Positions 24,000-58,032 of a stretch of DNA of 64,000 nucleotides are shown one piece after another. This DNA is from Cyanophora paradoxa CCMP329 (lineage: Eukaryota > Plantae > Glaucophyta): positions 93,496-157,495 of the forward strand of contig QPMI01000643.1 of assembly GCA_004431415.1 (NCBI GenBank). The letters run 5' to 3'. The notes below the pieces were generated by a model. The model searched no databases, had not been told where the DNA came from, and was given only the letters and a program-made list of their open reading frames with translations. The stretch's first letter is position 1. Each line of letters starts with the position of its first letter. The translations under genes were made by a program, and so were the position numbers.

Positions 24000-24885
24000 G
24001 TTATTTTATCTTCAAGGAAAATGCGAGCATGCTCGGCGACACGGCCTGACCGCGACTCGGGGACCAGGCTCTGAAGTCGGGCGGGGTAGATGTAGGCTGT
24101 GTCTTCGGTCCAGCGGCACCGTTGGGAGGCCGGGTCTGAGTGGTCACATGCGCGGCGGAGAGCCTCTGCTTCCGGCGTTTTCGCTGTGAAGCGGCTGTCG
24201 CATTCTTTGGGATCCATTATGCAGCGGAAGAAGGAGACGGGTTCGCCGGTGGTGTCATATATGTGGTCCTCTCGGTCGTCCTGGCCTTTGTCTCGGCGGA
24301 CCCAGTGTTCGAGCTCAACTAGGACGCGTTCTCTGCCGTCGTCAGCGTCAGTTGTCCGCCGGATATTGCAGATGCGTCCTAGATACGCTTCCGTTGTCCA
24401 AACGAAGCCGCCGACTTTGTACTGGGGCGAGAGCAGGCCGGCTTCAAGAAGGGTACGTTGGGCTGCAGCCGGATTTTGCGCAGGCTGCAGGTGCATGGGG
24501 AAGCGGAGACGACGGGGGATGGCGCGCGGGCCGACGGGCTGACATATTGCTCGGGTGAACGACGGGAACCAGGAGGGAGGTCTATTGAGTCGCTGTTTAA
24601 TTTTCCCGCTGCCCCATAAGCTAATCCAGTCGAGCACACTGACGCCGTCGGGCCCCGTGACGTCAGCAGCTGTGAGGATATCGTGGCGCCAAAGGAATGG
24701 TGCAGCCTCACGCAGGAGGCGCGGGGGGAGCAGTGTTGTGAGCACAAAGCGGCGTTCGAGCTGCGGGTGAGGCAGGGCCGGAACGAGATAGTCCTTGCCT
24801 GAGTCGAGTTTGTAGCCGGCGCGGGTCAGATTTCGCGCTACAGCTAGTGCAAAATTGTCTCTGTAGGCTGCGGGGCCCAGCTGTA

Positions 24886-24980
24886 ACACATATGTATAAA
24901 CTTATTTAAATCCCTCGTTCATCTCGATCGCTTCGCGATCTCGATTCACTCAGGATTTAAATAAGTTTATACATATGTGT
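24886..24980. repeat. Terminal 95-nt hairpin of element A
   Basis: ACACATATGTATAAACTTATTTAAATCC (24886-24913) pairs perfectly with 24953-24980; interior is a symmetrical 18+3+18 nt with TC/TC mismatches around GATCGC-TTC-GCGATC. Confidence 0.95.
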
Positions 24981-25289
24981 CAAAATTAATACTAAAATAC
25001 GTATTTATCGATTAAATTCTTTAACTTTTTTATGCAAACTTTGTATAAATTAATGCAAACTTTGTATTAAAAATGAAAAACGCGTTTAACTTTATGCATA
25101 TTAACGATTGAATCAATTGATCTTATATCGATTGATTATGTTCTTTGTCGATTACATATATAACTGCGATTAATTTGCATTAAACTACTTAAAGAACGAA
25201 ATAATCGCGATTAAATTGCATAAATTCGCATAAACTCGATATATCTCTCTGGTATTGAAGTAGACCACCGCCCATTCTGTATCGAAAAA

Positions 25290-25560
25290 CGCAAAAAGTG
25301 TCACAGAGTTGCATTGTGTCCAATTAAACAATCGATGAGATTGCTGATTTGCATTTGTGCACCCAAAAACTGTCACAGAGTTGCATTATCTCCAATTAAA
25401 CAATCGATTATAATGGGATGGGCACTTTTGCACCCAAAAAGTGTCACATAGTTGCATGGTCTCCAATTAAACAATCGATGGGATTGCGGATTTACATTTT
25501 TGCACCGAAAAAGTGTCACAGAGTTGCATGGTCTCCAATTGAACAATCGATTAGATTGCA
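25290..25560 (+). repeat. Four tandem ~72-bp repeats
   Basis: AAAAAGTGTCACAGAGTTGCAT..TCCAATTAAACAATCGAT recurring at ~25293, 25365, 25436, 25508. Confidence 0.9.
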
Positions 25561-25669
25561 TATGTTCTATAAAACAGAATAAATGAATTCAAGTGTGACA
25601 GGTAGTATTCAAATGATATTCAGTAAGAGATAGTTTTGTTTTTGAGAAAGTCAGTAAGAGGGGTGGAAT

Positions 25670-26140
25670 GTCTGTGACGCCTGTGACGGCTGTGACGCCT
25701 GTTTTCAGAAGTCTGTCATTTTTGAAAATTTTAAAAAGTTTGAAAGTAGGTGTCACAGGCGTCACAGGCGTCACACTCAATTAAATTAGGTGTCACAGCG
25801 AAATTGCAGACCATTTCCAGTAAGACAACTTCGCATTTTCAAAAAGGTTGATTAATGGATAGTGTTTTGTAGGTGTCAGAGGTGTCACAAGACGGATTTC
25901 AGTAAGACAAGAATATATTTTCGAAAATCTCAGTAAGAGAAAGAGATTCCATTGTTAATTGGGTGTGACGCCTGTGACGGCTGTGACGGCTGTTTTCAGA
26001 AGTCTGTAATTTTTGAAAATTTTAAAAAAAAGTTTGAAAGTAGGCGTCACAGGCGTCACAGGCGTCACAGTCAATTAAAGAGGCGTCACAGTCAATTAAA
26101 TAGGTGTCACACCCGATTATCTGACCATTTTCAGTAAGAC
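25670..26140. promoter_or_regulatory. Two iteron-like candidate origin blocks of element A
   Basis: (CTGTGACGC/G)x3 - AT-rich spacer - (GGCGTCACA)x3 at ~25670-25800 and ~25963-26110, flanked by CAGTAAG. Confidence 0.55.
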
Positions 26141-26313
26141 CATCTGAAATTCTGAATTTCTCAGTGTCAACTAACTCGGAAATCGCAATACTCTATGTTT
26201 CTCCGATTTCTCCAACCCTGAAAACACACCTGTTATTCTCTCATCTATCTCATGAGATACTCTCGTTTCGCCAAAAATTGACAAACGATTTCCCATCATG
26301 CTGTAAAGGAAAC

Positions 26314-26580
26314 ATGCCGATTAACCAGCAATATCACAATTTCCATGGGACTTACATCTTGATTGTGAATAGAATGCAAGATCATTATGAGATCTTTCAA
26401 GAGATGGGATTGCGAATTACAAGGAGATCAACTCTTTGTAGATTCTTGAAAAAGAATGGTGCTAAATGGGATAAGACAATTCGCCGATGGTATACAGAGG
26501 ATGCTAAGAGTCCCCTTCTTAATATTTTCGAGACAGATGGGGAGTTTTTCTATCAGGATCGGTTTAATCATTACCAATAG
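26314..26580 (+). CDS. Small viral protein with DUF5710-like motif (element A)
   Basis: LKKNGAKWDKTIRRWY resembles the GARWD..K.WY signature; AAAATTGA at 26274-26281 upstream. Confidence 0.45.
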   Translation: MPINQQYHNFHGTYILIVNRMQDHYEIFQEMGLRITRRSTLCRFLKKNGAKWDKTIRRWYTEDAKSPLLNIFETDGEFFYQDRFNHYQ

Positions 26581-26621
26581 CCAAGAACTCCAACTGGAAT
26601 GAGTTGTCTATTCCATTCATA
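26564..26621 (-). pseudogene. Displaced 3' end of element A penton 2
   Basis: Encodes MNGIDNSFQLEFLAIGND*, matching MNGIDNSFQLEFIE* at the end of 42364-43296. Confidence 0.92.
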
Positions 26622-26904
26622 ACACATAGTAAAATGCGGAGTTTTAACCCTCGGCTTATCTTAATTGATTTTGTTGATATATCTCGTATATTCTATTTCA
26701 ATCAATCGATAATCTGTGTGTATCTTATCGAATATTCAATTATTTCGATTATTTTGTATTCTTTTCGATATTTTATCGTAAATTTCTCTTATTTTCCGAT
26801 TAGTCTTACTGAGTCTATCGATAATCTCTATATATTTCCGAATAATATAACTGAATCTCAATTAGATCTTGCCTCTGGTTAAAACTCCGCATTTTACTAT
26901 GTGT
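26622..26904. repeat. Terminal 283-nt fold-back hairpin of element B (mirror copy 55087-55369)
   Basis: ACACATAGTAAAATGCGGAGTTTTAACC (26622-26649) pairs perfectly with 26877-26904; the 227-nt interior pairs imperfectly throughout. Confidence 0.9.
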
Positions 26905-27156
26905 GATTGGTCTAAAAGTTAATTGATTTAATCGATATTATATTCATGTACTTTCTCGATTAAATTTATTTAAATTTAATTCATTTAATCGGAAACATAT
27001 CGCTTAACTCGATTAAGATCCATAAATGATTCATTTGTTTATATTAACAAATAGATCTCTTATTGAATCCAATCGTAATTATACATGAAACTTATATGTT
27101 ATTATCATGTTTTAATGAGTCTAAGGGGGGACCCTTAGGAATTTAATGAATAATTG

Positions 27157-27452
27157 GGTGTCACAGGTGTCACAGGTCCATCCCAAACTTTTGAAAATTC
27201 ACTCTTTATAGGAGAAACTTTGGGATAAACCTGTGACACCTGTGACACATACCATATTCAGTAAGGACCTCTTTTATAATGAAAAACTCAGTCATAATCT
27301 TATCTATGTATTTCTAATTAAATGAATAAATGATTTAATCGAGTGTCACAGGTGTCACAGGTCCATCCCAAACTTTTGGAAATTTACTCTTTATAGGAGA
27401 AACTTTGGGATAAACCTGTGACACCTGTGACACATACCATATTCAGTAAGGA
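27157..27452. promoter_or_regulatory. Two iteron-like candidate origin blocks in the TIR (mirror 54539-54834)
   Basis: GTGTCACAGGTGTCACAGGT-CCATCCCAAA...TTTGGGATAA-ACCTGTGACACCTGTGACAC then CAGTAAGG, at ~27158-27266 and ~27343-27452. Confidence 0.6.
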
Positions 27453-27974
27453 CCTCATATATTGTTAAAATCTCAGTGTTAGTTGGTGTAGTTGATTCAA
27501 AAAATGCATTTATACTCTGATTCATTGTTATTTCCTGTGAAATTTGAGTCAACTCAACCCACTTAGTCAACCCTTGCATTGAATTCGTAACAAAATCCAT
27601 ATACTATTACTACTTTTACGATTAATATGAGTCAACCTTGAGTCCACTTAAATATAAATATAATATAATAGGGGGAATCTAGGGGAGATGCTTAGAAACA
27701 TATGAATTATTGAGCCTATGAGACTTACATCGTCACGCTAGCCTCGTTGAGAGGATTCCGAATCTGTTTTTATCTTTGTGAGATGATGAGTTGGTGAAGA
27801 GATACATGCTTTTTAGTGTTTTGTATGGGAGTTTTCGATATGACGTCATCATGACGTTGCATATGTATATGATATATATGACACACGGGCGGACTCGGGA
27901 GATTATGACGATCACGGCGATGTGTTAATTGTCATATTGTTTATGTATATATATTTGGCGCAATCTGATTGGTG

Positions 27975-28610
27975 TGCTTGAAACCACATAATTCGTGCTT
28001 TAAACCACATAATTCGTGCTTTAAACCACATAATTCGTGCTTGAAATCACTTATTAAAAACTAATTCGTGCTTGAAATCACTAATTAAAAGATAATTCGT
28101 GCTTGAAATCACTTATTAAAAGATAATTCGTGCTTGAAATACTAATTGAAAGATAATTCGTGCTTGAAATCACTAATTAAAAGATAATTCGTGCTTGAAA
28201 TCACTTATTGAAAGATAATTCGTGCTTGAAATCACTAATTAAGAGATAATTCGTGCTTGAAATCACTAATTGAAAGATAATTCGTGCTTGAAATCACTTA
28301 TTAAGAGATAATTCGTGCTTGAAACCACTGATTAAAAGATAATTCGTGCCTAAAACCACTTATTAAAAGATAATTCGTGCTTGAAATCACTTATTGAAAG
28401 ATAATTCGTGCTTGAAATCACTAATTGATAGATAATTCGTGCTTGAAACCACTGATTAAAAGATAATTCGTGCCTGAAACCACTAATTAAAAAATAATTC
28501 GTGCTAAATGAAATCGATTACATGATATCGATTACATGAAATCGATTACGTACATGAAATCGATTGCATGAAATCGATTACATGAAATCGATTACATGAA
28601 ATCGATTTCC
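27975..28610 (+). repeat. Compound minisatellite: 21-bp x3, 31-bp x~15, 14-bp x~7
   Basis: Core TAATTCGTGCTTGAAATCAC about 18 times, then CATGAAATCGATTA repeats at 28508-28610. Confidence 0.92.
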
Positions 28611-28831
28611 ATAAAGAATAAAACATTTCGCCGAAGTTTCGCCGAAGTTTCGGTGTTTCGTTTCTCCGCATCTTCAAACGCTTGTATCTCATCACCAGAT
28701 AGTCAACTTGCAGCGTTCTGCATAGCGTTGTGAAGCGCTTGAGAAGATCTACACGTTGATGTGTATATCATATGCATATATGTATATCACACATACATAT
28801 ATTTGGAAAAAACGAGTTTTCGGCTATGAAA

Positions 28832-30217
28832 CTAGCTAGTTTTGGTCCTTTCTCTTAGTGTTCTTTGAGGTTTAGGGGCTGTATATGACTCCTTAGTAGT
28901 CTGAAAGTCATTATACCATCTCTGGCTATTCACTTCTGAAAGTTTCTGTGTCCCTGCTATAGTGAGCTTTTTGAGTTCCCTGCTAACTTTTCCAGCCTTC
29001 TCCTTCCTAGCCTCTATCAAAGGCTTATCTGGGACTTCATTAGCAGCTTCTATGCCTTCTCTCCTTATAGCAGCATCAACCCTAGCTTCCTCTTTAGCTT
29101 GCTCCAAGGCATCCACTGTAGGTGTTTCCAGATACTCAACTGCATTCACAGGCAACAGCTCATGGAATGCAAACCTGTTATCTATGATCTCTCCAGTGGG
29201 ACTCCTTAGCTTAAACTTAAAGCCTTCCCTACTATCAACTGTGTAAACCATCCTAGACCAATTGTTACCCTGTTTAGCAAAGGGGTTTTTCTCAACTTTC
29301 ACTCTAACAAACATGCCAGGCTGCATGGTATCAAGGTAAGCTATTGATTTCTTGAATCTTTCATCTTCTAATCCCACTATATACCTATAATGCTCCTCTG
29401 TAGTTTCGCCTGGCTTCATCTTAGTAGCTGAGTGAACTGTATTATTGTAATTATACTCAATATCACCTAACACATCAAAGAATCTAGCTGTGTTATTAGC
29501 TATGCAGTAGTTTGTGATCAGTCTCTTAATCTGCTTGTTAAAGGCTTCAATTCGACCTTGGCTTCTATGGTCAGCAGTTCCACTCACTTGGTGTTCTATG
29601 AATTTACTAGATAAATACTCCTGGAATATTCGATTTTGGAATTCACTCCCAGCATCTGATTGAACTTTTACTATGGGTCTTGCCACTCTCATTTCAAGCT
29701 GTTTAAATGCAGCTAATGTAGTGAGAGCTGATTTATCCCTTATAGGTATAATATACCCAGTTCTCAGTGTGGATTCCATTGCAGTCATAAAGGTATCATA
29801 GCCATTGTTTTGTTTCTTATAAGCTGGGAAAAAGAGCAAATCAATCACATAGGTATCAAGGGGCTGCCTAATTGGAACCATGGGATCTCTCTTCCTAGAT
29901 ATAGCTGGTGCATTGATCTGAACTACCTCTTGTTTTTTATAGAACTCTTGCAATTGCTTATAGGATTCATCAGGTAACTCAGCCCTCATAGCTTGAAGCC
30001 CTTTGTAACCAGTTCTCACATCATAGAATCTCTTTGCAATCTTGCTGGTTTCTTTCACTGCAATAGCAACTGGGATCTCTACTGGGACAAGCTCTTTCAT
30101 CTCTGATTTTTTGACAATTCGAGATTCCCCCTTTTCCTCCTTTGGAATTGTGATAGGCAGTAGGTTACCTTGCAGTTGCTCAGTGGTTCTCCTAACTATT
30201 CTTCCAGTTGCTGGCAT
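28832..30217 (-). CDS. Polinton-type retroviral-like (rve) DDE integrase
   Basis: YVIDLLFF, VQSDAGSEF, QGRIEAFNKQIK, YNNTVHSATKMKP; uninterrupted 461-aa ORF. Confidence 0.93.
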   Translation of the reverse strand: MPATGRIVRRTTEQLQGNLLPITIPKEEKGESRIVKKSEMKELVPVEIPVAIAVKETSKIAKRFYDVRTGYKGLQAMRAELPDESYKQLQEFYKKQEVVQINAPAISRKRDPMVPIRQPLDTYVIDLLFFPAYKKQNNGYDTFMTAMESTLRTGYIIPIRDKSALTTLAAFKQLEMRVARPIVKVQSDAGSEFQNRIFQEYLSSKFIEHQVSGTADHRSQGRIEAFNKQIKRLITNYCIANNTARFFDVLGDIEYNYNNTVHSATKMKPGETTEEHYRYIVGLEDERFKKSIAYLDTMQPGMFVRVKVEKNPFAKQGNNWSRMVYTVDSREGFKFKLRSPTGEIIDNRFAFHELLPVNAVEYLETPTVDALEQAKEEARVDAAIRREGIEAANEVPDKPLIEARKEKAGKVSRELKKLTIAGTQKLSEVNSQRWYNDFQTTKESYTAPKPQRTLRERTKTS

Positions 30218-30220
30218 CTC

Positions 30221-33200
30221 TTAATTAAAAGGAACAGAATTAATACCATCTGGTAAGATGTATCTCTTTGCATCAAAGCAGTTTAGGGCAACCCTTCTAC
30301 TCACAGTGTCTATTATTGTGTGATCTGCCCTTCTTTTCTGCTTTGCAGTCACAGTCTTGCTGATACCTGCAAATAAACACTGCTTAAAATCATTAAATTG
30401 GAGTTCCTCAGTTGAAGTCCCAGAGAGCTTACTCCTCTCAATCTCAGCAGTTCTGAAACTGTAAACTTTGGCTCTCAGACCCACATACTCCAATATAGCA
30501 GAACCTGGCATTTCATTTTTGTATTTACCTGGGGTCATTCTTGAATCACCTCCAAGGTCCAAAGAATAAGCAATATTCTCTATATCTTTTGCAATGGTCT
30601 TAGATTCAATATATAGACAGAAGGAGTCAGTATCATGGAATAGTAACTTTGCTTTTGTCCATTGGGACCTTACAGTATCATAGAAGAACTGGTAATTATG
30701 CAGTTTGGCTGCATCCAAAACATAAGCCCCAATTGCAACAGGCTTATCTAGTTTCACATGCTTTGTGTAAAACTCAAAGGCAACTGCTTTTTCGTTTATG
30801 GGGCTTGTTGATTTCACCAATGGGGAGGCTGCATATTTCATAAATAGTTTCTCACTGTTTGCAATCTTAACCACAGATCTACCTCTGCAAGATTCAATGC
30901 ATTTCCCATAGATTGAATTATTCATGAGCTTGTAGAAATCAGCCTCGAATTTATTCACTGCTTTCCTTCTCATGTCAGTATTCAGCTCAATATAGGGTTT
31001 CATTACAGGAGCCACAGTAAATGATAGGACCCTGTGAACTTTCTTTAATTTCACCCCTTTGTCCAACAGATATTGCAGAAGAGGCTCAGAAATCACATAG
31101 TTTGTCACAGAACCAAAGGTTGCAGTTAGCTTAGGGGTCTTATCAAGCTCTTCTCCTGAAAGATCTAATAGGCTCTTTTGATATTGTGATAATTCGGCAT
31201 AATCTATTATTTTCTTGTTAATAATTAGGGGAAATCACTGTGATCTAGAAACAGCCTAATTGGGTAATCCAGATCAACTTCTAGGAAACTGGATCTGTTA
31301 TCTTGTGGGTTGAATTCGGTCTCCCATCTAAAATCACCAACTGGAATTGGCTGACTCAAACAGTAGCCATACAAGTTGTTAGCATCAAACAGCATAATGT
31401 GGGAGTTTTCACCATCAGCCTCAGCATACCTACAAGGCATTGTTGCAAAGCCACCCCTGATTCCCCTCTCAACAAATTCGTATTGCTCTACATCACTTAT
31501 AAGCTCTATTTTTGCCTTGGTGGTCCTTAACATAGCATCCCAAGATAACCCAGGGGCAGATACATAATGAACTGGGTCAAGTCCATATACTGAGTGTGAA
31601 AGCCTTCTAAAAGCCTGGAATTTGTTCATTAACTCATCTACATCAGCAGCTCCAAAATCCATGAAATTGCTTGCATCAATGAACTTGTAAAGACCCCATT
31701 GCAATGACAGGTATTGATCAAAGTTTTTCGAAAGGATTTCGATTCGCTTTTTATCACCCATGCCTGCTATTTTTCTGAAAATGAATGTCCCACAGTCATC
31801 CATTTGGTCAACAACCACTGCTACTTTTGTTTGCTTTGAGATTCTCCTATGGAGATTGCAGTTTCTGCATGCAGGTGCAATGTAATTACCTGTGTGGTGA
31901 TCATGATCCCTGCATTTGAAGTTCTCCTTAGTGAACCTCTCACTGCAAAGGTAACATTGTTTGGTAGCTCTGTAAATTGCTTTCTGCTCATCTGTGAGTT
32001 CATTCATAGGAATATTGGTGAACAGGAAATCGATCAGCTCTCTTGCTTTGATTTCCAAGCATTCAAACAGACCTCCCATTGGATCCTGACCCTCAAATCG
32101 AAAATCTTGAACATCTTCCCCAGTGACTACTCTAAGGTTCACTGCTGAGACTTCCCGCTTGGATTTCGATGCATCAATGGGGATGCTTCTATGTTCAATC
32201 TTGCAGTAAACCACAACAGGAAGCCACACAGTTTTCCTGAGGTTTTTCAGTCCAAACTCTATGGTGGTCTCAGGTTTAGGGGTGATTCCCTTTGAGAGTC
32301 TCCAATCAATGCATCTGTTTGAGTCCACATGAGCAGTGAGTTTAGCCTCAGACCTGAATCGAGATAAGCATGTATCACAGTAGTGTAACTTTTGATCCTT
32401 GGTTTTATCAAGGGCAACTCTGAGAAGTCTTGAAAGGGACATGATTGTAATATAGTGACCATTCCCTTCATCATCATGAATGAGCATGAGATTAATCTTT
32501 TGCTTTCTGCCTGGGTTGCTGGATTGATGCAGTGGATATATAACATCTCCATCCATTCCAAAGATGTTTATGCTAATGCCTGCATTTTGAGCTTCGAATT
32601 TATCAATGATTTCAGCATCACAAGGAACAGGGAATGGGATATTGTCGAAATTGAGAGCCAAAGGATTGTATGTGGTTGGTGAGTATTTCCATTTGCGATA
32701 TTGTGTAAGCTCACTTCTCTTGTGGGAATTTACATCTTTCCTATGGATCCATGCCAAAATGGCATTTTCAAAGCAAGAATCATCAATATTTCGAATATTC
32801 ACTGTGGCTCTCTTGGCTGCAATTGATTCTGGTGTTTTAACATAGCAGCCACCAGTTGGGGCATAACTCATAATAGCAACTCTTAGCATTTCGATTCTCT
32901 CCAATCGATAGCTATCAACAACATTCATCTGTTCCTGACACATTTGGGCTGCTTTATTCAGCTCAGTTCGAATATTTCTCGATTTGGTTAATACAAAATA
33001 ATCGCTGTAAATGTATTTCGATATCCAAACCTGTGGATTGCTGACTTTTACGAACTTGCAGATAAACGACAAGCGAACTTTGATTGCCCTGAATTGATCC
33101 AGACTATCTCTTAAACGTTTTGGTAGAGAGGTTGCAATTCTATCTAAATATTCAATCACATCTACCACAACTTCCCTTCTGGCTCTGTATGTGAGCCAGC

Positions 33201-33465
33201 GATATAATTCATTCATGGCTGTTCCATCTTCTGCCTCTGGTTCTATTTGCCTCAGGCGATCGAGTTCATCAAGAGTCTCAACTTTGTCATAGAGGTTATT
33301 GGCTTTTCTGGTTAATTTTGCTAAAGTGGGTCTGCCCCTTGAAATAAATCCGATTTCCCGGTCATATTCAGCCTCTGTGATTTCATGGGCTGCATACAGT
33401 GTTCCCAGTAATCCCATAAGTTCCCATTTCTTCTCTCTAATGAGTCTGTTGCTAATTCGGGGCAT
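30221..33465 (-). CDS. Protein-primed family B DNA polymerase (one frameshift at 31228-31231)
   Basis: OTU-like region (NIDDSCF...GHY), C2H2 finger, endonuclease VII-like insert (CYLC...RDHDH..G.Y...AC..CN), motifs DANNLYG, KLMNNSIYGK, DTDS, GLRAKVY. Confidence 0.92.
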
Positions 33466-33574
33466 AGTTCCTAACTTGTTCCTACTAAAAGGGGAGGTTT
33501 TAAATGGGGAATTCTGAACACAAAATTTGATGAAAACTACTTAAAGAAATATCTTCTATATATATAAAAGGACA

Positions 33575-34390
33575 ATGGCAGAGAAGAAATCGTATTGCCT
33601 GGAAAAGCTCAAAGCGGCTTTAATGTTGCTTTGTGGATCTGATAACTTCAATGATTATGTTGCTCTTGGAAGTAACAGGAAACCGCTCCCTCTTTGGGCA
33701 AAGCTTGCAAAATATGGATTAAGTGACTATGACCTGCCTCCAGAGTCTGAGCATTGCGCCTGTGATCATCCAATTAAAGAGCAATGCTATATTCTGCATG
33801 TTAATAAAAAGATTGTGGTCATTGTTGGGAATTGCTGCATTTTACGATTTATTCCAAAGGGTGCCAGAGGTCAAGATATATGTGAAAGATGTGGAGATCG
33901 GCATAAAAACCGAAAGGATAATTTCTGTAATAAGTGCAGAATCGCTTTAAAGCAAGAAGAACTGGAAAGAAAAAGAGAACTTGAAAAACAAGAGGAAGCT
34001 CGAAAGAGGCAGCTTGAATTAGAAGAAAGAGAGCGAAAACAGAGAGAATTAGAACAAGAAAGAGCAAGGAATAAACATGCAGTTAATCTTTTCCTGATTT
34101 GGTGCAACCAATTTATTCCGAAAATGGATAATCTTCGCAGAGATGATATAGAGAGGTTCAGAGAGGGCAGATCTGCATTGATTGAAATGTATGCAGGACT
34201 CAGTACAACAAATACATTGGTTGCTGGGTTTCAGGTGCCATATCTCAAAAAGGATATTGCAAAAGGACTAGATTGCAGATGGAATAAGGACAAGAAAACA
34301 TGGGAGACCTTGGAAATCGAACCATTTGTAGCATTGCTAGGTAAGCATTTCAAACTAATGTATATTGAGCGATTTGGACAAAGAGGTTAG
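33575..34390 (+). CDS. Cys-rich, coiled-coil viral protein with C-terminal DUF5710-like motif
   Basis: CACDHPIK..C, VGNCCI, CxxC pairs, VPYLKKDIAKGLDCRWNKDKKTW. Confidence 0.7.
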   Translation: MAEKKSYCLEKLKAALMLLCGSDNFNDYVALGSNRKPLPLWAKLAKYGLSDYDLPPESEHCACDHPIKEQCYILHVNKKIVVIVGNCCILRFIPKGARGQDICERCGDRHKNRKDNFCNKCRIALKQEELERKRELEKQEEARKRQLELEERERKQRELEQERARNKHAVNLFLIWCNQFIPKMDNLRRDDIERFREGRSALIEMYAGLSTTNTLVAGFQVPYLKKDIAKGLDCRWNKDKKTWETLEIEPFVALLGKHFKLMYIERFGQRG

Positions 34391-34446
34391 AGAACAAAAA
34401 ATGATTTAAAGAATTCTCTATATATATTAAGAGAGACAGAGGAAAA

Positions 34447-34701: not shown

Positions 34702-34912
34702 ATTATTTTTCCCAGCATATTACTAGGCTGGGATATGCTGTTTATTCGCTGAAATACTACTTTATCGTTTTTGTATCTGAACCACTCGATATATCATGTG
34801 GATAAATTTCGTAGGGATACTTTCTCGATTTCCAACAAAAAATGATTGGGGGACCCAAAACTACTTAAAGAAAAATCTTCTATATATATAAAAGGGACCC
34901 CGATCGCTGAAA

Positions 34913-37239: not shown

Positions 37240-37280
37240 ACAAAACGATTTATGATTGAAATGTATATGTAATTTTATAG

Positions 37281-39025: not shown

Positions 39026-39053
39026 TGTATCTTTATTAGAATGAGAGATAATT

Positions 39054-44841: not shown

Positions 44842-44884
44842 CTTTTACTTATCAGGAATTTTATAAATCCATATAGTAAAAGCC

Positions 44885-50800: not shown

Positions 50801-51631
50801 CAATATGTCGGGGTAAATTGTGAAGGGCTGAGTAAAGTTGGTGTTCAAGGGCGAATTGGAAGGATTTACCTTGTGGGTCTTGTTGGTTGGAGTAAAAATC
50901 CTGCTGTATCATCACACAGTGGCTTCTTGCATTGGGATAACATTTACGGGAAACCAACAGCTTCCACAACTGTCGGACCTCACTCTCACACTAAATCAGA
51001 TATCACCGATTTTGCACATACTCACACAAAGGCAAATATAACAGATTTCGCCCATACTCACACGAAATCGGAAATCACAGATTTCCCAACCTTAGACCCA
51101 TTTGTAGCAAATACGATCACAGCAAATAATACCATGTATGTGGGATCCGGTCAAATTTACCAACCAGACTCTCCTTTATTCTACGAACAGTGGTTCTTCC
51201 ACAATTCCGCGAACATATACGATAAAACACTATTATGTCGGGGAAATGCTTACGCAAGAGCATATTATGCAATGGATGAAACAGATAATGGTAAGATTGC
51301 GAAACTTGTTTCAGAACAACGGGTCAATAAGGATCAGTATATACAGACAGGGAGTTTTTCAAAATCCTTAGCAATCACAGGTCCGGGTCATTGGGGATTT
51401 CCACAAGTTGTCACATTCCCAAAAGCGTTTGCAGAAGCCCCAGCAGTCGTTCTCAATTTAAGAGATGGGTATAATGGTGGTTCATATGTATTGGTATATG
51501 GTGTCACAAGTTCCACAACAACAACATTTACTATTTATGCAACAATTTCGGCAAATAGAGAATACAATGAAAGCATTGGACTTTTCCACTATCAAATGAC
51601 TTATATTGCAACAGGGAAGATGGTAGCATAG
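44885..51631 (+). CDS. 2248-aa fibre/adhesin with His-x-His repeats, two LamG-like domains and a C-terminal lectin-like domain
   Basis: AHTHTKDQITDF repeats, YLPLxGGTITG shaft motifs, GSIAEIIVFNRALT twice, VTFPKAFAEAPAVV. Confidence 0.8.
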   Translation: MSFNYPPNLETIQEDNASSTKHVNFDNIKVKGSVSIDHSSDNSSKTQSREHALSVNQTDPDKEEVSVAFSLGNVKANQVAEIKATRRRPRKLKTSGTHPDIPSRFDSGRLIFNVQDEQGKQNTALRIYNEGSTAKAEVPQVLQVGPIANTNQVSYTNDVYPKDITYDFARNEPFGFFTPKDVHQKKPSITINSSPSQPVAIHLHPDLVEMDRHLLPLYSNVKDLGIRTRQWRNIHGSNVYANGEKLVSEKTIREIFEYYGPVPVPFPLPWDPPDLTPKKQPGREYTADETVPFGQHIVSWEQVRNKPIFEPKKQIDEQYLPPEVDILELDEYQFVPDEEEYLPDGFDPQEYEYDQYDPNEEEILPDGLDPQEYEYEQNYEPDEEYLPDGHDPPAVDYEQPYEPHEELLPEGLQPEVFEIFPDWEQINNKPARYPPEDHNHDWDEILGKPQKYPPEDHRHDWGDIDGIPEEFPPSKHEHTWDEINDQPEFAKVEPLATLGVSLYQTCNVPERIFLNEHYVHVNGTLANSAMRGPLHIRTLPGSYETPPEPGATIPNIFVSSYMEADIPTDTFRVPTDPATYQNYNSAIQVHVADVSSLDGSRPMIVFSRDKYSYIPIVGTANDNYGRAELAWIKTDYGGVLEANQRMAAKNIHNENISRVVTEDYLTAVILVNFVTLAMLGDYVTKPELADELSKYLPLVGGTITGDLTVNSNIYSSNIETSNLRVNGILTVGSGNFNTMNQLYREWYSITASNDPASNIPNCLFAWKASGVHGQNAASTILYNRVSSIVPSITVSSTGSPYYSSNIAINNQMTLTSDSGNYSANSTMTRTIDWSQGLTFFYIGRYHLTQTGASHTHLSVLKTTSPTRLAYYGANNSTRLGTTTFAINGVTQPPIAVTVPSLVNKWYYSDQTITSTSYTVGLNGVDVGTLTGINNYLPDSTINNFGFGTIFAGSIAEIIVFNRALTTAEKQQVRYYIQQMYGFPNTQPLTIYRGLKITSPDTVIDYLTVTSNANLPHHPTSNVVQGWIQNHTHTKDQITDFAHTHTKDQITDFAHTHTKDQITDFAHTHTKDQITDFAHTHTKDQITDFAHTHTKDQITDFAHTHTKDQITDFAHTHTKDQITDFAHTHTKDQITDFAHTHTKDQITDFAHTHTKDQITDFAHTHTKDQITDFAHTHTKDQITDFAHTHTKDQITDFAHTHTKDQITDFAHTHLWEHITNPPLTFPPDSHTHDYSEITNSNHKHPWSEIDEKPRFASTGDLVNGDGFYGVSFYQSDTIPERLQLSEYYLHRKGIDAGTTMDGELYIKQPSRSQMVSAGGVGVIDTKPGLFLTSYYNEDIPLTAGLPPLPLDPVSYDDKDAILQVNVTDVSATDGSRPKIIFSRSKFNYAPLVGQPKDDFGKCEMAWIKTLAGGALEVNQRMAAKNLHNETLSGVVTDDYLESKNYVDDTELAAVLEDYVTKSELDVYVTEPELNVALSNYLPLTGGTITSNLVVTSNLTVGGKIQMGTGSYLESYSENFYRITSNFDPASNIPNCIFAWKASGVHGQNAASTILYNRVSSIVPSITVSSTGSPYYSSNIAINNQMTLTSDSGNYSANSTMTRTIDWSQGLTFFYIGRYHLTQTGASHTHLRVLKTTSPTRFAYYGANNSTRLGTTTFAINDVTQPPIAVTVPSLLNKWYYSDQTITSDSYTVGLNGVDVGTLTGINNYLPDSTINDFGFGTIFAGSIAEIIVFNRALTTAEKQKVRYYIQQMYGFPNTQPILTREILNIIGKDRLTLSNLEIPTHTHTKSQITDFAHTHSRLEIPDFAHVHTKDEISDFDHTHTWNSITDKPVTFTPSPHLHLWSHITDRPTLAAVATSGNYDDLINKPTYTAPTNFDATSGISTDRTGDWRFFTFISPYSGANTWASGDEDCSGYKMLWTVPAGMKTCYIFYVCQYNSRYFDVVGVYPSTNSYTLSRVNAYSPGSDPSVEYRQYVGVNCEGLSKVGVQGRIGRIYLVGLVGWSKNPAVSSHSGFLHWDNIYGKPTASTTVGPHSHTKSDITDFAHTHTKANITDFAHTHTKSEITDFPTLDPFVANTITANNTMYVGSGQIYQPDSPLFYEQWFFHNSANIYDKTLLCRGNAYARAYYAMDETDNGKIAKLVSEQRVNKDQYIQTGSFSKSLAITGPGHWGFPQVVTFPKAFAEAPAVVLNLRDGYNGGSYVLVYGVTSSTTTTFTIYATISANREYNESIGLFHYQMTYIATGKMVA
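47972..48520 (+). repeat. 36-bp coding tandem repeat, about 15 copies (AHTHTKDQITDF)
   Basis: Direct reading; synonymous variants recur in a higher-order pattern. Confidence 0.95.
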
Positions 51632-51671
51632 ATATTCGTTTATTTTTCTATCCTTCTTAGTAAAAGAAGCA

Positions 51672-52517
51672 ATGGGTGAATATAATCGAGTTCAACTGCC
51701 TATATATTCCCTTGGATCCCCTGCAATGCATTTTCGCCAGCATGAAGTAAATGATGAGGTTCGTGGTTTAGAATCCACAGAGAGACCCAATTCCAATGGC
51801 AACTCCTTTGATAAAAATTCGATTATTCGAGTTAAAGAGCTGAGAGCTGATAAGAATTCTGGTGTGGTTAAAACAACTCGACTTCTTGTCACCAATGCTA
51901 ACTTCTTCCAGCCTACAAATGGAGGTCCTGATGCTTACAGTGTTGCCCTGAAAACCCTAGATTTCGACAAGAATACTGCTGCTGTTACTGTGAGATCAGG
52001 AGGAGCATTTATTGGGGGTGGTTGCAGAGTGTCAGGTCAACTCTCATCCTCCATTTCGTATAATGATGTCCCAGATACTCTAGAGCAAAATGTGGAAGAC
52101 CCCCAACGAATTCGATTATATACTCCTGTCGCACAGCAGCCATTAATTCAATTTTACATTGGATATACTGTTACTCTTGAAAACTCGGAATTAATTGAAG
52201 GAACCAAAAGAGTACTGAGAGGTCTTGCGATTCCATCTGCAATGCTTTCCCTTTGTAGAGCCAACAACAATCAAGTAGGTCATAAATACTATTTCAATGT
52301 TCAGGGATATAATCATTTCGGTTATGGCTACTGTGTTTATAATAATAATTTCACCTTTGACTTGTTTGTTACAGATATTGGGTTATATACTATAACTCTT
52401 ATCGGTTTGAGAACAGATATAGCCGCTGTATCAGCTCTTAGAGGTGTAACTCCTGATACTCTTTCAGTTACAGGGTTTTACATGGAGCCAGATGTAATTG
52501 ATGACCCAACCCCATAA
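51672..52517 (+). CDS. Hypothetical virion/fibre-associated protein, paralogue 1
   Basis: Shares GL.STE...ELR.DKN.G.VKTT.LLVTNANF...SGGA.IG.G.RV.G with the next ORF. Confidence 0.7.
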   Translation: MGEYNRVQLPIYSLGSPAMHFRQHEVNDEVRGLESTERPNSNGNSFDKNSIIRVKELRADKNSGVVKTTRLLVTNANFFQPTNGGPDAYSVALKTLDFDKNTAAVTVRSGGAFIGGGCRVSGQLSSSISYNDVPDTLEQNVEDPQRIRLYTPVAQQPLIQFYIGYTVTLENSELIEGTKRVLRGLAIPSAMLSLCRANNNQVGHKYYFNVQGYNHFGYGYCVYNNNFTFDLFVTDIGLYTITLIGLRTDIAAVSALRGVTPDTLSVTGFYMEPDVIDDPTP

Positions 52518-52540
52518 AAGATATATCCCTTTAATGTAAA

Positions 52541-53374
52541 ATGGCTGAGCAACCCCCACTTGAACGAATTATTACACCACAGCTATCATTAGCTGCCCCA
52601 GCAAACCATGTTCTGCAGCATGCTACTTTTGATGATGTGGAAGGTCTCCAATCCACAGAGGTCCAACCTACAATGAACACCTTTGGTTCCACCCACAAAC
52701 TGAGATTACAGGAACTCAGATGTGATAAAAATAATGGAATAGTTAAGACAACTAAGCTACTTGTCACAAATGCAAACTTTTCTGCTCATTATGGAGACCC
52801 AGATAGCTATGGAGATCCTCTGTCTACTTATTCTTTTGAATCTAGGTCGGGAGCTATTAACTGCAAATCGGGGGGAGCTTATATTGGTGATGGTCTTAGG
52901 GTTGGTGGGGCTGTTGGAGCGCCTTTATTTGTGAATGATCAACCCAATCCCATTGATCCTAACACCAGAATTCGAACCTATGTCCCCAGCATGAATGCCC
53001 CCTATATAATCAAAATATTCCCCATTGTGGTAAATGAACAGACAGCAGTTGTAGACTCTCTTGTTGAGATTGGTGACCACTACAAGGTTGTTGTGGATAT
53101 TCCACCAGATGTATATGCTGTATGTCAAGTGGAGGGTGGAACTCCTAATTTTGCAGTTGTGATCACCCCATATGATAATTTCGGAATTGCTTATCATGGA
53201 GTCAATTTTGGTTTGGAAGATTATCAGTTCCTGGTTAGAGCCACCAAGTTTGGTATCTACAAGTGTGTATTATATGCTGAGAGAACTGATTTTATTGCAA
53301 AGCAGAATACCTATGCTGAGTACTATGGCACTAATCGATATTTCCCCATTTTTGGGCAGGATACTGCTCCATAA
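52541..53374 (+). CDS. Hypothetical virion/fibre-associated protein, paralogue 2
   Basis: Tandem paralogue of 51672-52517. Confidence 0.7.
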   Translation: MAEQPPLERIITPQLSLAAPANHVLQHATFDDVEGLQSTEVQPTMNTFGSTHKLRLQELRCDKNNGIVKTTKLLVTNANFSAHYGDPDSYGDPLSTYSFESRSGAINCKSGGAYIGDGLRVGGAVGAPLFVNDQPNPIDPNTRIRTYVPSMNAPYIIKIFPIVVNEQTAVVDSLVEIGDHYKVVVDIPPDVYAVCQVEGGTPNFAVVITPYDNFGIAYHGVNFGLEDYQFLVRATKFGIYKCVLYAERTDFIAKQNTYAEYYGTNRYFPIFGQDTAP

Positions 53375-53396
53375 GAATATTGGTTATATATAGAGT

Positions 53397-53669
53397 ATGG
53401 ATAGTAAAACAAAAAAGTTTATTGATGCTGCTATGACAGTTCATGGTAAAGATAAATTCGATTACAGTGAGACACATTACATCAAAGCTCAAGAGAAAGT
53501 ATCTGTTAGATGTTTGCAGTGTAATAAGGTGATCCTTACCTATCCCTTTAATCATGTGAAGGGATCAGGTTGCAGGGAATGCAACAAAAAACATTCTCAG
53601 GCTTACAGGAAAAGGGCTTCTTCATCAATCACAGTGGAATATAGGGATGTTTGCATTAGGTTCGATTAG
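53397..53669 (+). CDS. DUF723-like zinc-finger protein
   Basis: FIDAAMTVHGKDKFDYS...Y...C..C...P.NHVKGSGCREC. Confidence 0.65.
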   Translation: MDSKTKKFIDAAMTVHGKDKFDYSETHYIKAQEKVSVRCLQCNKVILTYPFNHVKGSGCRECNKKHSQAYRKRASSSITVEYRDVCIRFD

Positions 53670-53698
53670 GTTTAATTAATTTTTATAAGGTATTCTTA

Positions 53699-54097
53699 AT
53701 GGAGACTCAATACAGAGGCTTTCATGTAATGCTTGATTACAAGGCTAAATCAGCTATTGCAACAGGACATGAGCATGTTAGCTTCCTAGGTAATTGGATT
53801 ATGGGAACCCTTGAACAAGCAATATTGAGACAAGGTATTAGGATTGTTCATAAACACTGTGAGATATTTGATGGCAAACTATCACCTCCTGGTTTTGCTT
53901 TGGTTCTGCTATTAGATGAAAGCCATTGTACAGCTCATTGTTATTCCAATGAAGGCATGTTAGCAATTGATATATTCAGTTGTGGTAAAGAAGCTCAGCA
54001 TAAAACACAATCAGTAGCAGATGAGATCGATAAAACAATGAATTTCTTAACATTTGAGAAGACTGAGAGACATAAACATGATAGATTCCCGTTTTGA
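53699..54097 (+). CDS. speD: S-adenosylmethionine decarboxylase proenzyme (short pyruvoyl-dependent type)
   Basis: GFHVMLD, PPGFALVLLLDESHCTAHCY..EGMLAIDIFSCG with the E-S autocleavage site. Confidence 0.85.
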   Translation: METQYRGFHVMLDYKAKSAIATGHEHVSFLGNWIMGTLEQAILRQGIRIVHKHCEIFDGKLSPPGFALVLLLDESHCTAHCYSNEGMLAIDIFSCGKEAQHKTQSVADEIDKTMNFLTFEKTERHKHDRFPF

Positions 54098-54147
54098 TGG
54101 GTTTCTATAATGAATTTCTAAAGGATTCCTTTGTTTTCTAACAATAA

Positions 54148-54212
54148 CATTGATAAGCTACTGTAACAAAAAGATATAATATATCCTTTCACTACAGTAG
54201 CTTTATACAATG
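54148..54212 (+). terminator. Hairpin downstream of the last rightward gene (candidate transcript 3' end signal)
   Basis: AAGCTACTGTA (54155-54165) pairs with TACAGTAGCTT (54193-54203), extendable to CATTG/CAATG. Confidence 0.4.
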
Positions 54213-54304
54213 ATTATTTTCCGGATTCCGGACATTTTTTACGATAGAATTCTATTGTAAGTAATTGGAATAATGTTCGATTTCATTACAGTAAAACTCA
54301 ACAT

Positions 54305-55369
54305 TCCCCTAGATTCCCCCTATTATATTATATTTATATTTAAGTGGACTCAAGGTTGACTCATATTAATCGTAAAAGTAGTAATAGTATATGGATTTTG
54401 TTACGAATTCAATGCAAGGGTTGACTAAGTGGGTTGAGTTGACTCAAATTTCACAGGAAATAACAATGAATCAGAGTATAAATGCATTTTTTGAATCAAC
54501 TACACCAACTAACACTGAGATTTTAACAATATATGAGGTCCTTACTGAATATGGTATGTGTCACAGGTGTCACAGGTTTATCCCAAAGTTTCTCCTATAA
54601 AGAGTAAATTTCCAAAAGTTTGGGATGGACCTGTGACACCTGTGACACTCGATTAAATCATTTATTCATTTAATTAGAAATACATAGATAAGATTATGAC
54701 TGAGTTTTTCATTATAAAAGAGGTCCTTACTGAATATGGTATGTGTCACAGGTGTCACAGGTTTATCCCAAAGTTTCTCCTATAAAGAGTGAATTTTCAA
54801 AAGTTTGGGATGGACCTGTGACACCTGTGACACCCAATTATTCATTAAATTCCTAAGGGTCCCCCCTTAGACTCATTAAAACATGATAATAACATATAAG
54901 TTTCATGTATAATTACGATTGGATTCAATAAGAGATCTATTTGTTAATATAAACAAATGAATCATTTATGGATCTTAATCGAGTTAAGCGATATGTTTCC
55001 GATTAAATGAATTAAATTTAAATAAATTTAATCGAGAAAGTACATGAATATAATATCGATTAAATCAATTAACTTTTAGACCAATCACACATAGTAAAAT
55101 GCGGAGTTTTAACCAGAGGCAAGATCTAATTGAGATTCAGTTATATTATTCGGAAATATATAGAGATTATCGATAGACTCAGTAAGACTAATCGGAAAAT
55201 AAGAGAAATTTACGATAAAATATCGAAAAGAATACAAAATAATCGAAATAATTGAATATTCGATAAGATACACACAGATTATCGATTGATTGAAATAGAA
55301 TATACGAGATATATCAACAAAATCAATTAAGATAAGCCGAGGGTTAAAACTCCGCATTTTACTATGTGT
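54305..55369 (-). repeat. Right terminal inverted repeat of element B
   Basis: Mirror of 26622-27686, followed by TSD TTCATA. Confidence 0.95.
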
Positions 55370-56249
55370 TTCATATCAACAAGATCACCATAATAATCTC
55401 GAAACTCAACTGTTAACTCTCTAATCACAAGGTTTCGATCGGTTATTTTTATGTATTCACTGTGCTCTCCACTGTGATAAACATACTGTCCAATATCTTT
55501 ACTCAATTGCAATCTGAGAATCGCCCCTTGATTCTGTGGTTGTGATCTTGGGACAATATTGTGGTTTGTAGCAAATGGGGAGAGTTCTTTAATGTGCATG
55601 TATAAATACTGTTCTGCATTCATGTCTGTCATCTTGGATGCTTCTAACTTGTAGTTTAAGCGAGATGCCTCGAATTCATATCCTGTGAATGTGATTCCCC
55701 ATTGGGGATGGTTTGGGGTGATTGGGATTCCTGCAAAATAGAGGAAATTCTCGGGGGCATATAAAGACCTTGCAGACTCTGGGAAATCGTAGGTTTGCTC
55801 AATTGAAGCGACCCACTCCACAGAACTAACCCAAGAAGTTTACCCAATCTCTGTGTAGATGCTACCATCTCGAATTGAACATTACTGTAAAACTCCAATT
55901 TGTAGGAAGTAGGATTGTAGTAGACCTTGAATGCATATGTGAGATTGTTGCTCCCAGTAAATGTGAAATTCAGACCATAATTATATGGACTGGTGACCCC
56001 GAAATGCCCTTGATTAATATAACCACTTGGGAGAAGGAAGACCTGTTTGGTTTCAGAGATGCCTTGGTAGAAGAATCTGACAAGAAGGTGGTCTGTTCCA
56101 ATGGAATTATAGATGCTGTTGGGGATCTCTGCATACAAAACTCGACATTCTCTTGGTTTGGTCACTGGGGTTGTGAGTGAAACTTTGTAGGAGTTTTCTA
56201 TTTGTCCATCTGATCGGTCTCTGCTATCTATATTGACCAGCCGAATCAT
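55370..56249 (-). pseudogene. Element A penton 2, interrupted by element B
   Basis: MIRLVNIDSRDR...YGDLVDM, completed at 26621-26564; additional frameshift at 55830-55832. Confidence 0.88.
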
Positions 56250-56277
56250 TTTAATATATGTTTATAGATAAAAGAAG

Positions 56278-57288
56278 ATGCCTGTGGATTACATCGAAGT
56301 GAGCTCTTTCAATACAATTTCGGGAGATGGACCAACTTCGAGTTTTATTGCTCGCCTCCCAAGCACCTATGAATTTGTGAGAGCAGTAAGACTGGTTTCA
56401 GCAGAATTCTATAACAGCATTCCCATGGTGAGTGGTGAAACCAAACCAGGAGATGTGACAATAGATAATGCAATCTACCTTTATTGGTCTGAATATTATT
56501 CTGGTGCAGGAAGCACTGGTATTCCAACTGATCGACCTGCTGCCGATTATGAGCAATGGAAGCACATTGTGATAAGTCGCAGCACACCCATTCAAAACCA
56601 CCAACAACTGGTGAATGTAATTAACTCCAAACTTGCATTGAGAGAGCCACCAGTAGCAATTCGCTGTAAATGGGATGATACACTGAAACGAGTAATATTC
56701 CATTCCACCATACCGTTTTACCTGGCTTTCTCAACTGCAATAAACCCAACCCAGGCGCAGATTCAGAGGTTTTTGAGTTCTGCTCGACTGCTTGGTCTTG
56801 ATCCTGGGAGATATGGTAACACCCCAATCCAATCACAAGTTTATAATACTCTGACTGATGGTATCTTTACTGGGTCGATGGTGCATGGTATCATATCTTC
56901 ATTTGAACCTGAAAAGACCAGGGATAGTGTTCTGTTTGTGAGAGTAAAGGAGTTGGGTGATCTGGTTCAATGTGGTGATGGTCTCCTCACTGGATATTTC
57001 CACAAAATCGTTGTTCCAGATAAAGATTATGGTGAGCATGTCGTTTATAATTCGACAGAAGCCCATCCGATTTATAAATACTATAACAAGAATCTGGGAC
57101 TTTCCACATTTTCGGTTGATATTGTGAATGCAGTTAATGAACCAATTGATTTCGAGGGTCAACCTGTCCACCTCACCTTCGAAATTCGATATGGTGATGA
57201 ACCTGCTGGTGATCCTGTGTACGAATACTTCAAGAGGAGAATGGCGGAAACACATCCATCTTATCCGGTTATTGCGAATTTTGCGTAA
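56278..57288 (+). CDS. Element A minor capsid/penton protein 1 (intact ORF)
   Basis: Highly similar to 41325-42334. Confidence 0.75.
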   Translation: MPVDYIEVSSFNTISGDGPTSSFIARLPSTYEFVRAVRLVSAEFYNSIPMVSGETKPGDVTIDNAIYLYWSEYYSGAGSTGIPTDRPAADYEQWKHIVISRSTPIQNHQQLVNVINSKLALREPPVAIRCKWDDTLKRVIFHSTIPFYLAFSTAINPTQAQIQRFLSSARLLGLDPGRYGNTPIQSQVYNTLTDGIFTGSMVHGIISSFEPEKTRDSVLFVRVKELGDLVQCGDGLLTGYFHKIVVPDKDYGEHVVYNSTEAHPIYKYYNKNLGLSTFSVDIVNAVNEPIDFEGQPVHLTFEIRYGDEPAGDPVYEYFKRRMAETHPSYPVIANFA

Positions 57289-57341
57289 ATCAAGGATCAT
57301 TGGTGAATTTTTTATGTTGCAGTATAATAAAAGAGATAATC

Positions 57342-57776
57342 ATGGATATTACTTCGACCCTCCAACGTCTTTCTCTGAAAGAAGCTCTAACAACCCGGAA
57401 GAAGCCAAGGCGTTCTTCTTGGACAACTCTCTCATGCTTGGTCTTGAATCCAAGTCGAAGCCAGTTCTTGTTGTTGTGAACCCAAGCAACACTTTCGAGA
57501 ATAATGCTGGAAATCGCATTAGTTTCAAGCTCCCTCGCTACAATTTCTGTGGAAAACTCGAACTTGCGTTTGACCTTCCAGCTGTCACTTTTGCTGGTGA
57601 TACCGACCTTGTTCGCAATGGATACGTTCGCCCAGTTGGTGCTCTTGTCTCTCGACTTGAAATCACCTATGGATCTTACACCTTCCATGTGCCTTCTGAT
57701 TTCCTTGCTCATTTCCCTCTTATCTATTACAGTGAGGATCAACTCGCCAAGAAGAAGCGTTCAATGGGAATGGTTC
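57342..57776 (+). pseudogene. Element A major capsid protein, 5' part, interrupted by the Gypsy LTR
   Basis: Matches the B MCP up to KKKRSMGMV, then sequence switches to TGTCGG at 57777. Confidence 0.88.
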
Positions 57777-58032
57777 TGTCGGATGAGAGGATTCCCACCC
57801 GGTGCAGCGTCCGTGCGGTCACGCACGGGCTGGGGCTGTAGCTGGGAGCACAAGTGGTCTATTCACAAGTGTACCCGTCCAGGGATCGCGTACCCCCAAA
57901 CGGAGTCGCGCCCGGCGCTAAGTCAGAATACAGAGAGTGCTAGAGCTAGCTGCTCGATAGCACTAGACTAGGGCTAGCGGCTACGCATAGACTGCCGGCT
58001 AGCCTAATCCGAGGGAATCGCGGCACGCGACA
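57777..58032 (-). repeat. 3' LTR (256 bp)
   Basis: Termini TGTCG...CGACA; preceded on the minus strand by the purine tract AGAGTGAGGAGT (58033-58044). Partner LTR not in the window. Confidence 0.7.

Follow-up and report, generated by a model that had tools for sequence, protein, structure and literature searches.

How does an endogenous virus of a protist come to carry a second virus in one capsid gene and a retrotransposon in another, and does such a double hit reflect targeting, competition or chance? The question is raised by a 64,000-nt stretch of contig QPMI01000643.1 from the glaucophyte Cyanophora paradoxa CCMP329 (assembly GCA_004431415.1, positions 93,496 to 157,495; hereafter the window), where a 33-kb low-GC viral block (24886-57776) interrupts a long interspersed nuclear element (LINE). 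Within this block, a candidate Polinton-like virus (PLV), virus B, sits in the penton 2 gene of a sibling, virus A, and a Ty3/Gypsy element breaks off the A major capsid protein (MCP) gene at the right edge (Table 1). A preliminary description of the window, made from its letters alone, had proposed this nest with element boundaries that proved right within 6 bp. We attribute the nest, with a probability of about two-thirds, to separate insertions of recent date that likely survived by falling into repeat DNA that is redundant and multi-copy, the double capsid hit being likely a matter of chance.

Insertions into virus A and its LINE

Short-read evidence here consists of assembled contigs of public sequencing runs aligned to the window. 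Nineteen of 22 runs contain at least half the words of 24000-33999, one of which may have supplied the window sequence itself, and runs X21 and X22, with almost no window words, are not taken as evidence of absence. Contigs were compared at the LINE and A terminus in four runs (best 32 of 5,454 pieces) and over the A capsid module in two (best 16 of 661, covering almost only capsid genes), with 24 of 431 and 12 of 20 junction and flank rows listed.

The insertion of B into A is resolved to the base. The two terminal inverted repeats (TIRs) of B are 100% identical over 1,065 bp, and are flanked at 26616-26621 and 55370-55375 by the 6-bp target-site duplication (TSD) TTCATA, a match with a chance of ~3e-4 at local base composition. 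The A penton 2 frame breaks off at ...DLVDM at the right junction and resumes from the left junction with NGIDNSFQLEFLAIGND and a stop, in the same register as the end of B penton 2 (ELIDMNGIDNSFQLEFIE, stop), and other A-type copies run on across 55370 in the penton frame (2/2 runs, contigs among those listed). The identical repeats, the TTCATA on both sides and the in-register halves together bear out the initial proposal that B splits A penton 2 at this duplication. The interrupted allele closes with 14 TIR-derived residues, and its product is probably defective, because the segment cut off by B is conserved in the relatives P0001 and P0002. An origin of the A/B pair by local duplication was considered and rejected: the capsid modules share only 75.8% DNA identity over 2,442 bp and penton 1 has diverged (of 309 codons, 97 differ synonymously and 58 non-synonymously), as expected of distinct sibling viruses.

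At the other visible edge of A, the first base of the Gypsy long terminal repeat (LTR; 57777, TGTCG) is preceded by GGTTC (57772-57776) inside the MCP frame. Other copies of the LTR start at the identical base, with other flanks stopping at the LTR start (run X1), and A-type sibling copies run past 57776 in the MCP frame as V-H-G-I-P-A (2/2 runs; X16 reaches H-G). The split of the A MCP by the Gypsy, as first described, is thereby confirmed, and the capsid continuation predicted to lie past the retrotransposon is present in the sibling copies of both runs. The element itself shows the reverse transcriptase (RT), RNase H and integrase order of Ty3/Gypsy, TG...CA LTR ends and a polypurine tract adjoining the LTR. 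A Pfam scan found no chromodomain in the Gypsy or the B integrase. A low-complexity stretch of ~1.2 kb (60415-61592; 72% GC) separates RNase H from integrase in the Gypsy and has no Pfam match.

A in turn starts with ACACATATGT at 24886, directly after GCTGTA, and this left junction cuts an open reading frame (ORF) of the LINE. Three LINE relatives were found at 55% identity (P0009, P0010 and P0011); P0009 and P0010 align as far as 24886, supporting the earlier claim that A splits a LINE, and P0011 starts slightly inside the LINE fragment. The LINE RT predicted to follow beyond A is found upstream of the 24886 point in these relatives, by homology only. In P0010 the RT match stops 146 residues upstream of that point and the endonuclease match lies further upstream; P0010 alone shows APE (E 0.0014) and RT (E 2e-5), P0009 has RT and RNase H matches, all below curated Pfam cut-offs, and the Ulp1 protease is C-terminal in P0011 and the window copy. 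Overall, the family appears to carry APE, RT and RNase H, followed by a C-terminal Ulp1/C48 protease, an order that, on a limited literature search, is possibly undescribed. Membership in the NeSL/Utopia group was tried and rejected, as NeSL and Utopia-1_TSP (PMC4640811) have an N-terminal Ulp1 with a restriction-like endonuclease (RLE), whereas Ulp1 is C-terminal here and a relative carries an APE match, the RLE having been given no dedicated profile.

The LINE itself ends at 18927 within a repeat of far higher contig depth, other copies of which go on past this position with different letters (4/4 runs), so that 18500-18926 is a probable further outer layer of the nest. Two weak joints, each with 22 nt on the short side, were noted here: another copy of the repeat is joined at 18633 to a B-type terminus (X1), and position 18807 is joined to LINE position 23134 (X1 and X3).

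The two viruses resemble each other at their ends. ACACATA forms the first bases of both, each end pairs with an internal inverted copy as a 28-bp perfect stem, and motifs GTCACAGG and TCAGTAAG are common to the A terminal region and the B TIR. A contig of a sibling copy spanning 26237-26608 (run X17) joins the small A ORF to the penton 2 tail. The left piece of A has no tblastx match to B at E 1e-4, and capsid genes make up 57% of visible A. Downstream of penton 2, A has one small ORF and then its terminus, where B has ~12 kb that includes the discoidin, patatin and fibre genes; either the gene order of A differs from that of B, or a block of ~12 kb is lacking in A. Among the matches listed, a foreign junction also occurs in the A-type terminal region at 25784.

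Table 1. Coordinates of the repeat, LINE, virus and retrotransposon features in the window
Feature	Positions	Strand	Evidence or remarks
Very high-copy repeat interrupted by LINE	18500..18926		Summed contig depth 143,017 and 49,200 in first two bins vs ~1,000 in LINE (X1)
LINE 3' part: ORF region downstream of RT, RNase H, C-terminal Ulp1/C48 protease	18927..24885	-	Peptidase_C48 E 7e-12; A8 tail 18927-18934
GCTGTA, predicted left copy of A TSD	24880..24885	+	Sequence only
A terminal non-coding region, probable TIR	24886..26124		95-nt terminal palindrome, 28-bp perfect stem (z -12.4); 72-bp and 9-bp tandem repeats
Small A ORF	26125..26580	+	Stop-to-stop, 151 aa; weak DUF5710 (Pfam E 0.002)
A penton 2, orphan 3' tail	26565..26621	-	17 codons; includes left TSD copy
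Virus B, apparently complete PLV	26622..55369		28,748 bp, 39% GC
B left TIR	26622..27686	+	1,065 bp; first 28 bp repeated inverted at 26877-26904
B rve integrase	28832..30217	-	D126-D188-E224, D(35)E spacing; Pfam rve E 2.6e-4 (below curated cut-off); phrog_956 E 7e-11
B pPolB (DNA polymerase B, protein-primed)	30221..33465	-	DNA_pol_B_2 E 8e-5 (below curated cut-off); motifs A, B, C; vOTU-like Cys/His; frame break near 31230
B primase-D5 (SF3) helicase	34913..37239	+	Prim-Pol, D5_N E 2e-11, DUF5906; frame break near 36940
B A32-like packaging ATPase	39054..39836	-	Pox_A32 E 6e-14
B MCP	39902..41271	-	56-65% identical to P0003; frame break near 40900
B putative penton 1	41325..42257	-	81% identical to A copy; its profile matches that of penton 2 end to end, but weakly (E 0.0025, probability 12%)
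B penton 2 (minor capsid protein)	42364..43296	+	Sputnik V18/19 minor-capsid clusters among Atlas matches at 0.97
B discoidin (F5/8) ORF, patatin-like phospholipase and fibre-like protein (2,248 aa, PTR repeats)	43286..51631		Pfam E 2e-6, 1e-20, 1e-4
B S-adenosylmethionine decarboxylase	53699..54097	+	Pfam AdoMet_dc E 5e-11; PHROG E 4e-12
B right TIR	54305..55369	-	1,065 bp, identical to left TIR
A penton 2, 5' part	55370..56249	-	66-68% identical to B penton 2; includes right TSD copy
A putative penton 1, uninterrupted	56278..57288	+	Codon comparison with B
A MCP, first ~146 codons	57342..57776	+	tblastn with P0003; truncated by Gypsy
Ty3/Gypsy 3' LTR	57777..58032	-	256 bp, TGTCG...CGACA; polypurine tract 58034-58044
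Ty3/Gypsy internal region	58033..64000	-	RVT_1 E 9e-13, RT_RNaseH E 1e-35, rve E 2e-12; extends past window edge

Age and origin of the nest

The frameshifts seen in the LINE and A are probably long-read errors, because all nine gaps checked lie at homopolymer runs and are filled in short-read contigs: six 1-bp gaps in the LINE (among 12 of 23 rows listed) are filled in 4/4 runs, and three in the A capsid genes in 2/2. Each of the three frame breaks in B adjoins a G4 or C4 run. Frameshifts in other protist proviruses are likewise reported to be assembly errors (PMC8547959, PMC10120064). The LINE shows 2 substitutions over ~5.7 kb (8 listed X3 pieces) and A shows 2 over 1.4 kb (8 listed X1 pieces, with a 97% likeness filter that biases this count low); because of these few substitutions and the identical B TIRs, all layers would be recent. 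Contig depth in X1, a rough guide only and not itself a copy number, is ~1,000 over the LINE, ~3,000-4,000 over the A capsid module and 75-128 where single joints occur; such values would correspond to some ten LINE copies and a few tens of A capsid modules. Many uninterrupted A-type capsid modules are present in contigs from elsewhere in the genome.

These data support a model where the layers accumulated one by one. A LINE copy would first have entered the high-copy repeat, as the continuation of sibling repeat copies suggests, and A would then have entered the LINE, where its left junction is observed and where an rve-type integration with a 6-bp duplication may be supposed. The last two insertions could have followed in either order, that of B with its observed 6-bp duplication, presumably through the action of its own D(35)E integrase, and that of the Gypsy in the A MCP, with its observed junction. 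The resulting A copy would likely have lost the ability to build a capsid of its own and, with passengers bringing it to >55 kb, would likely be too large for packaging. Uninterrupted A-type capsid genes elsewhere could provide capsids in trans, and the loss of those in the nested copy would therefore cost little.

For two uniformly placed insertions, the chance that both fall in capsid genes is 1.3-4.7% per doubly hit element, and that of at least one double capsid hit among 30 such elements is 0.32-0.76; the pattern was chosen after the fact. Three other B-type or LTR flanks with letters, among the 12 of 20 rows listed and biased to long unique flanks, have 57%, 73% and 43% GC, and at the weak joint at 18633 a B-type terminus abuts a GC-rich repeat. 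The foreign junction at 25784, in an A-type terminal region, likewise speaks against targeting of AT-rich DNA or capsid genes. Several points weigh against an origin by independent insertions and chance. The chance figures presuppose many doubly hit copies, a number assumed here; a single locus cannot tell survival bias from integration preference; position 56496, within penton 1 of an A-type copy (run X16), shows another foreign junction and so a further capsid hit, albeit in a comparison confined almost entirely to capsid genes; none of the contigs among the matches listed bridges a junction; and in Cafeteria, 91% of type 1 Ngaro retrotransposons lie in viral DNA, so that real targeting exists in a similar system (PMC8547959).

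This last observation leads to the alternative that fares best, which we nevertheless consider unlikely: that the integrases of B-type viruses and of the Gypsy favour proviral DNA already in place, either for its AT-richness or for its silenced or methylated chromatin, with the site within the provirus left to chance. Two insertions 2.4 kb apart in one provirus would fit such a preference, as would the 14 viruses found within other viral elements in Halocafeteria, called hotspots by the authors (bioRxiv 10.64898/2026.07.28.741278), the bias of Ngaro types 1 and 2a towards endogenous mavirus-like elements (EMALEs; PMC8547959), the methylation of viral genes in a studied glaucophyte (10.1101/2025.04.15.648976) and the CpG-poor core of B (observed/expected 0.38 vs 1.0 in host DNA). 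However, A itself entered 63%-GC DNA, the other flanks are of mixed GC as given above, and neither integrase has a detected chromodomain. The preliminary description had regarded AT-rich proviruses as preferred landing sites, a claim left unproven by the same GC values; in Cafeteria, host-integrated Ngaros are without preference for low-GC DNA (PMC8547959).

Far less probable is competition by insertion, where B-type viruses would target the capsid module of a sibling, knock out the competitor and bring their own intact, 76%-identical module. B does remove a conserved C-terminal penton segment, its capsid module and terminal motifs are close to those of A, and the junction at 56496 also falls in an A-type capsid gene, but two other B-type flanks (one of them the weak 22-nt joint) are without match to the A capsid stretch, the second capsid hit was made by an unrelated integrase, the order of B and Gypsy is not fixed, and many intact A-type modules persist. 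The related claim that superinfection disabled a sibling likewise went beyond what the locus supports, as B could also be an intragenomic copy. No description of capsid-directed insertion was found in the limited literature collection searched. Finally, the least credible reading is an assembly artefact, in which an unpolished long-read contig would have joined multi-copy repeats into a chimera. In its favour are the homopolymer errors of the window, the multi-copy state of every layer and the lack of a bridging contig among the matches listed; but a misjoin is not expected to leave the same 6 bp exactly beside each TIR end while keeping the penton in register (chance ~3e-4), nor to let an LTR start with its first TG within the MCP frame. 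We thus retain independent, recent insertions into redundant repeat DNA as the preferred account of the locus.

Identity and gene content of the two viruses

B would work like a polinton and is best filed, on its predicted proteins and a capsid model, as a PLV in the broad sense, under class definitions taken from PMC11161782 and bioRxiv 10.64898/2026.06.19.733378. Its predicted MCP is of the double jelly-roll type that marks PLVs in this sense: Atlas Capsid_N/Capsid_NCLDV clusters match at 0.98, and a model of the relative P0003 (8-row alignment, pLDDT 60) matches PBCV-1 capsid chains (E 4e-17, TM 0.56). Capsids of NCLDV type (nucleocytoplasmic large DNA viruses) rank first for this model, with the Sputnik MCP at rank 48 in PDB and virophage MCPs at ranks 46 and 50 in BFVD. 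B also has a minor capsid protein and an A32-like ATPase, penton 1 being weakly supported, and combines TIRs, TSD and integrase within the 14-40 kb size range, whereas A is seen at one end only. The pairing of pPolB with an rve integrase is that of Maverick/Polinton group 1, judged from Pfam matches below curated cut-offs and from motifs. No maturation (cysteine) protease was found in 22 B ORFs with Pfam or 13 with PHROGs, a search that a very divergent form could escape, and a crude search for HW+CG motifs in every B frame of at least 60 aa returned one 61-aa frame only. Virophage identity for A and B was rejected, given an MCP of NCLDV type and no cysteine protease found.

Relatives of these proteins are few. 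Among 1.84 billion representatives, just 5 are credible relatives of the MCP (P0005 was dropped as a cadherin-repeat false positive), and a PDB sequence search gave no match for the MCP and nothing relevant for pPolB. In viral_contigs, MCP peptides gave 7 pattern matches, none of them confirmed, and the B terminal 20-mer found no relatives.

B appears to be complete, and we predict that it is competent; in addition to the genes in Table 1, it carries an HNH-like ORF. Motifs A, B and C of its pPolB were located by their sequence patterns, and by motif the polymerase appears to lack intact exonuclease motifs. Only 45 residues separate FID from LSWDAM in this gene (31228-33465, minus strand). The mavirus polymerase is likewise reported to be without intact exonuclease motifs and accompanied by a separate SF3 helicase, as in B. 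No report of an AdoMet decarboxylase in any PLV was found in the limited literature collection searched. Just inside the left TIR, at one B end only, 27956-28650 holds ~15 copies of a 31-bp unit together with 21-bp and 14-bp arrays; the fibre gene has an internal 702-bp duplication (97.7% identical) and a 12-residue repeat present 15 times, and is followed by two paralogous ORFs without assigned function (34% identical), these genes together occupying 44885-52517 and 52541-53374 (plus strand).

Along the window, intron-rich host genes at 75% GC (1-8330) give way to 55% GC (8331-18927), 63% in the retroelement (to 24885), 36-42% in the viral block and 66% in the LTR element (to the end). The CpG observed/expected ratio is 0.38 in the B core (27687-54304), 0.55 in A (55370-57776) and ~1.0 in host, LINE and Gypsy DNA. 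At 2068-8233 (plus strand) lies a host gene with many short GC-rich introns and, by eye, putative leucine-rich repeats, a nucleotide-cyclase-like region and a coiled coil. The following ~10 kb (8331-18500) contain a number of minus-strand ORFs, as well as AT-rich gaps that resemble introns, and differ from the 75%-GC host genes; these 10 kb had no Pfam match in 16 frames scanned and no long inverted repeat, and may represent another large mobile element.

Comparison with known systems

Nests of virus in virus, virus in LINE and retrotransposon in virus are already known from Halocafeteria, cryptophytes and Cafeteria. In Halocafeteria seosinensis (bioRxiv 10.64898/2026.07.28.741278), as here, viral elements are nested in viral elements (5 PLVs and 9 virophages), viruses lie in LINE-rich loci, TIRs come with TSDs and terminal palindromes, and some elements combine pPolB with a D5 primase-helicase. 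There, however, passengers are mostly Mutator-like elements (MULEs), and it is chiefly elements without pPolB that have palindromes, while B combines a palindrome with pPolB; the available text makes no statement on capsid-gene hits.

The EMALEs of Cafeteria burkhardae (PMC8547959) are also AT-rich integrated viruses in a GC-rich host, with an rve integrase, pPolB and SF3 helicase, retrotransposon passengers and frameshifts that are assembly errors. They differ in that the MCP here is not of virophage type, no protease was found, and the passenger is Ty3/Gypsy rather than Ngaro; moreover, Ngaro sites in EMALEs show an intergenic bias, and of the 7 genic hits given in the available text none is in a gene named as capsid. 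The analogy to Cafeteria virophages drawn in the preliminary description thus holds for the way these elements work, but not for their identity, A and B being PLVs by their NCLDV/PLV-type capsid and the lack of a detected protease. In cryptophyte PLVs (PMC12220804) and a Hydrurus PLV with a Gypsy (PMC10120064), as here, GC-rich RT elements with terminal repeats sit in PLV genes, which they are expected to inactivate; unlike here, a virus-in-virus case is not described in the text available. Relative to Mavericks/Polintons (Polintoviricetes), B shares pPolB, rve integrase, A32 ATPase, major and minor capsid proteins, TIRs and the 6-bp TSD, but has no detected maturation protease, and carries an extra primase-helicase and two putative pentons.

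Among glaucophytes, 366 MCP hits have been catalogued for Cyanophora paradoxa (PMC10120064, Tables S1 and S4), and PLVs of Glaucocystophyceae carry the same discoidin (n = 11), patatin and PTR-repeat genes as B (PMC12220804); nesting in a glaucophyte host is not described in the available parts of these catalogues. The present locus thus extends virus-in-virus nesting to a glaucophyte host, as a base-exact case of how endogenous DNA viruses are lost from a protist genome: young proviral copies are struck by siblings or retrotransposons before point mutations accumulate, and most of the frameshifts seen in them are probably sequencing errors. One locus does not decide between proviruses as targets and proviruses as tolerated landing sites, a point on which the papers on Cafeteria and Halocafeteria also stop short; because its families are young and multi-copy, this genome would allow the matter to be counted directly.

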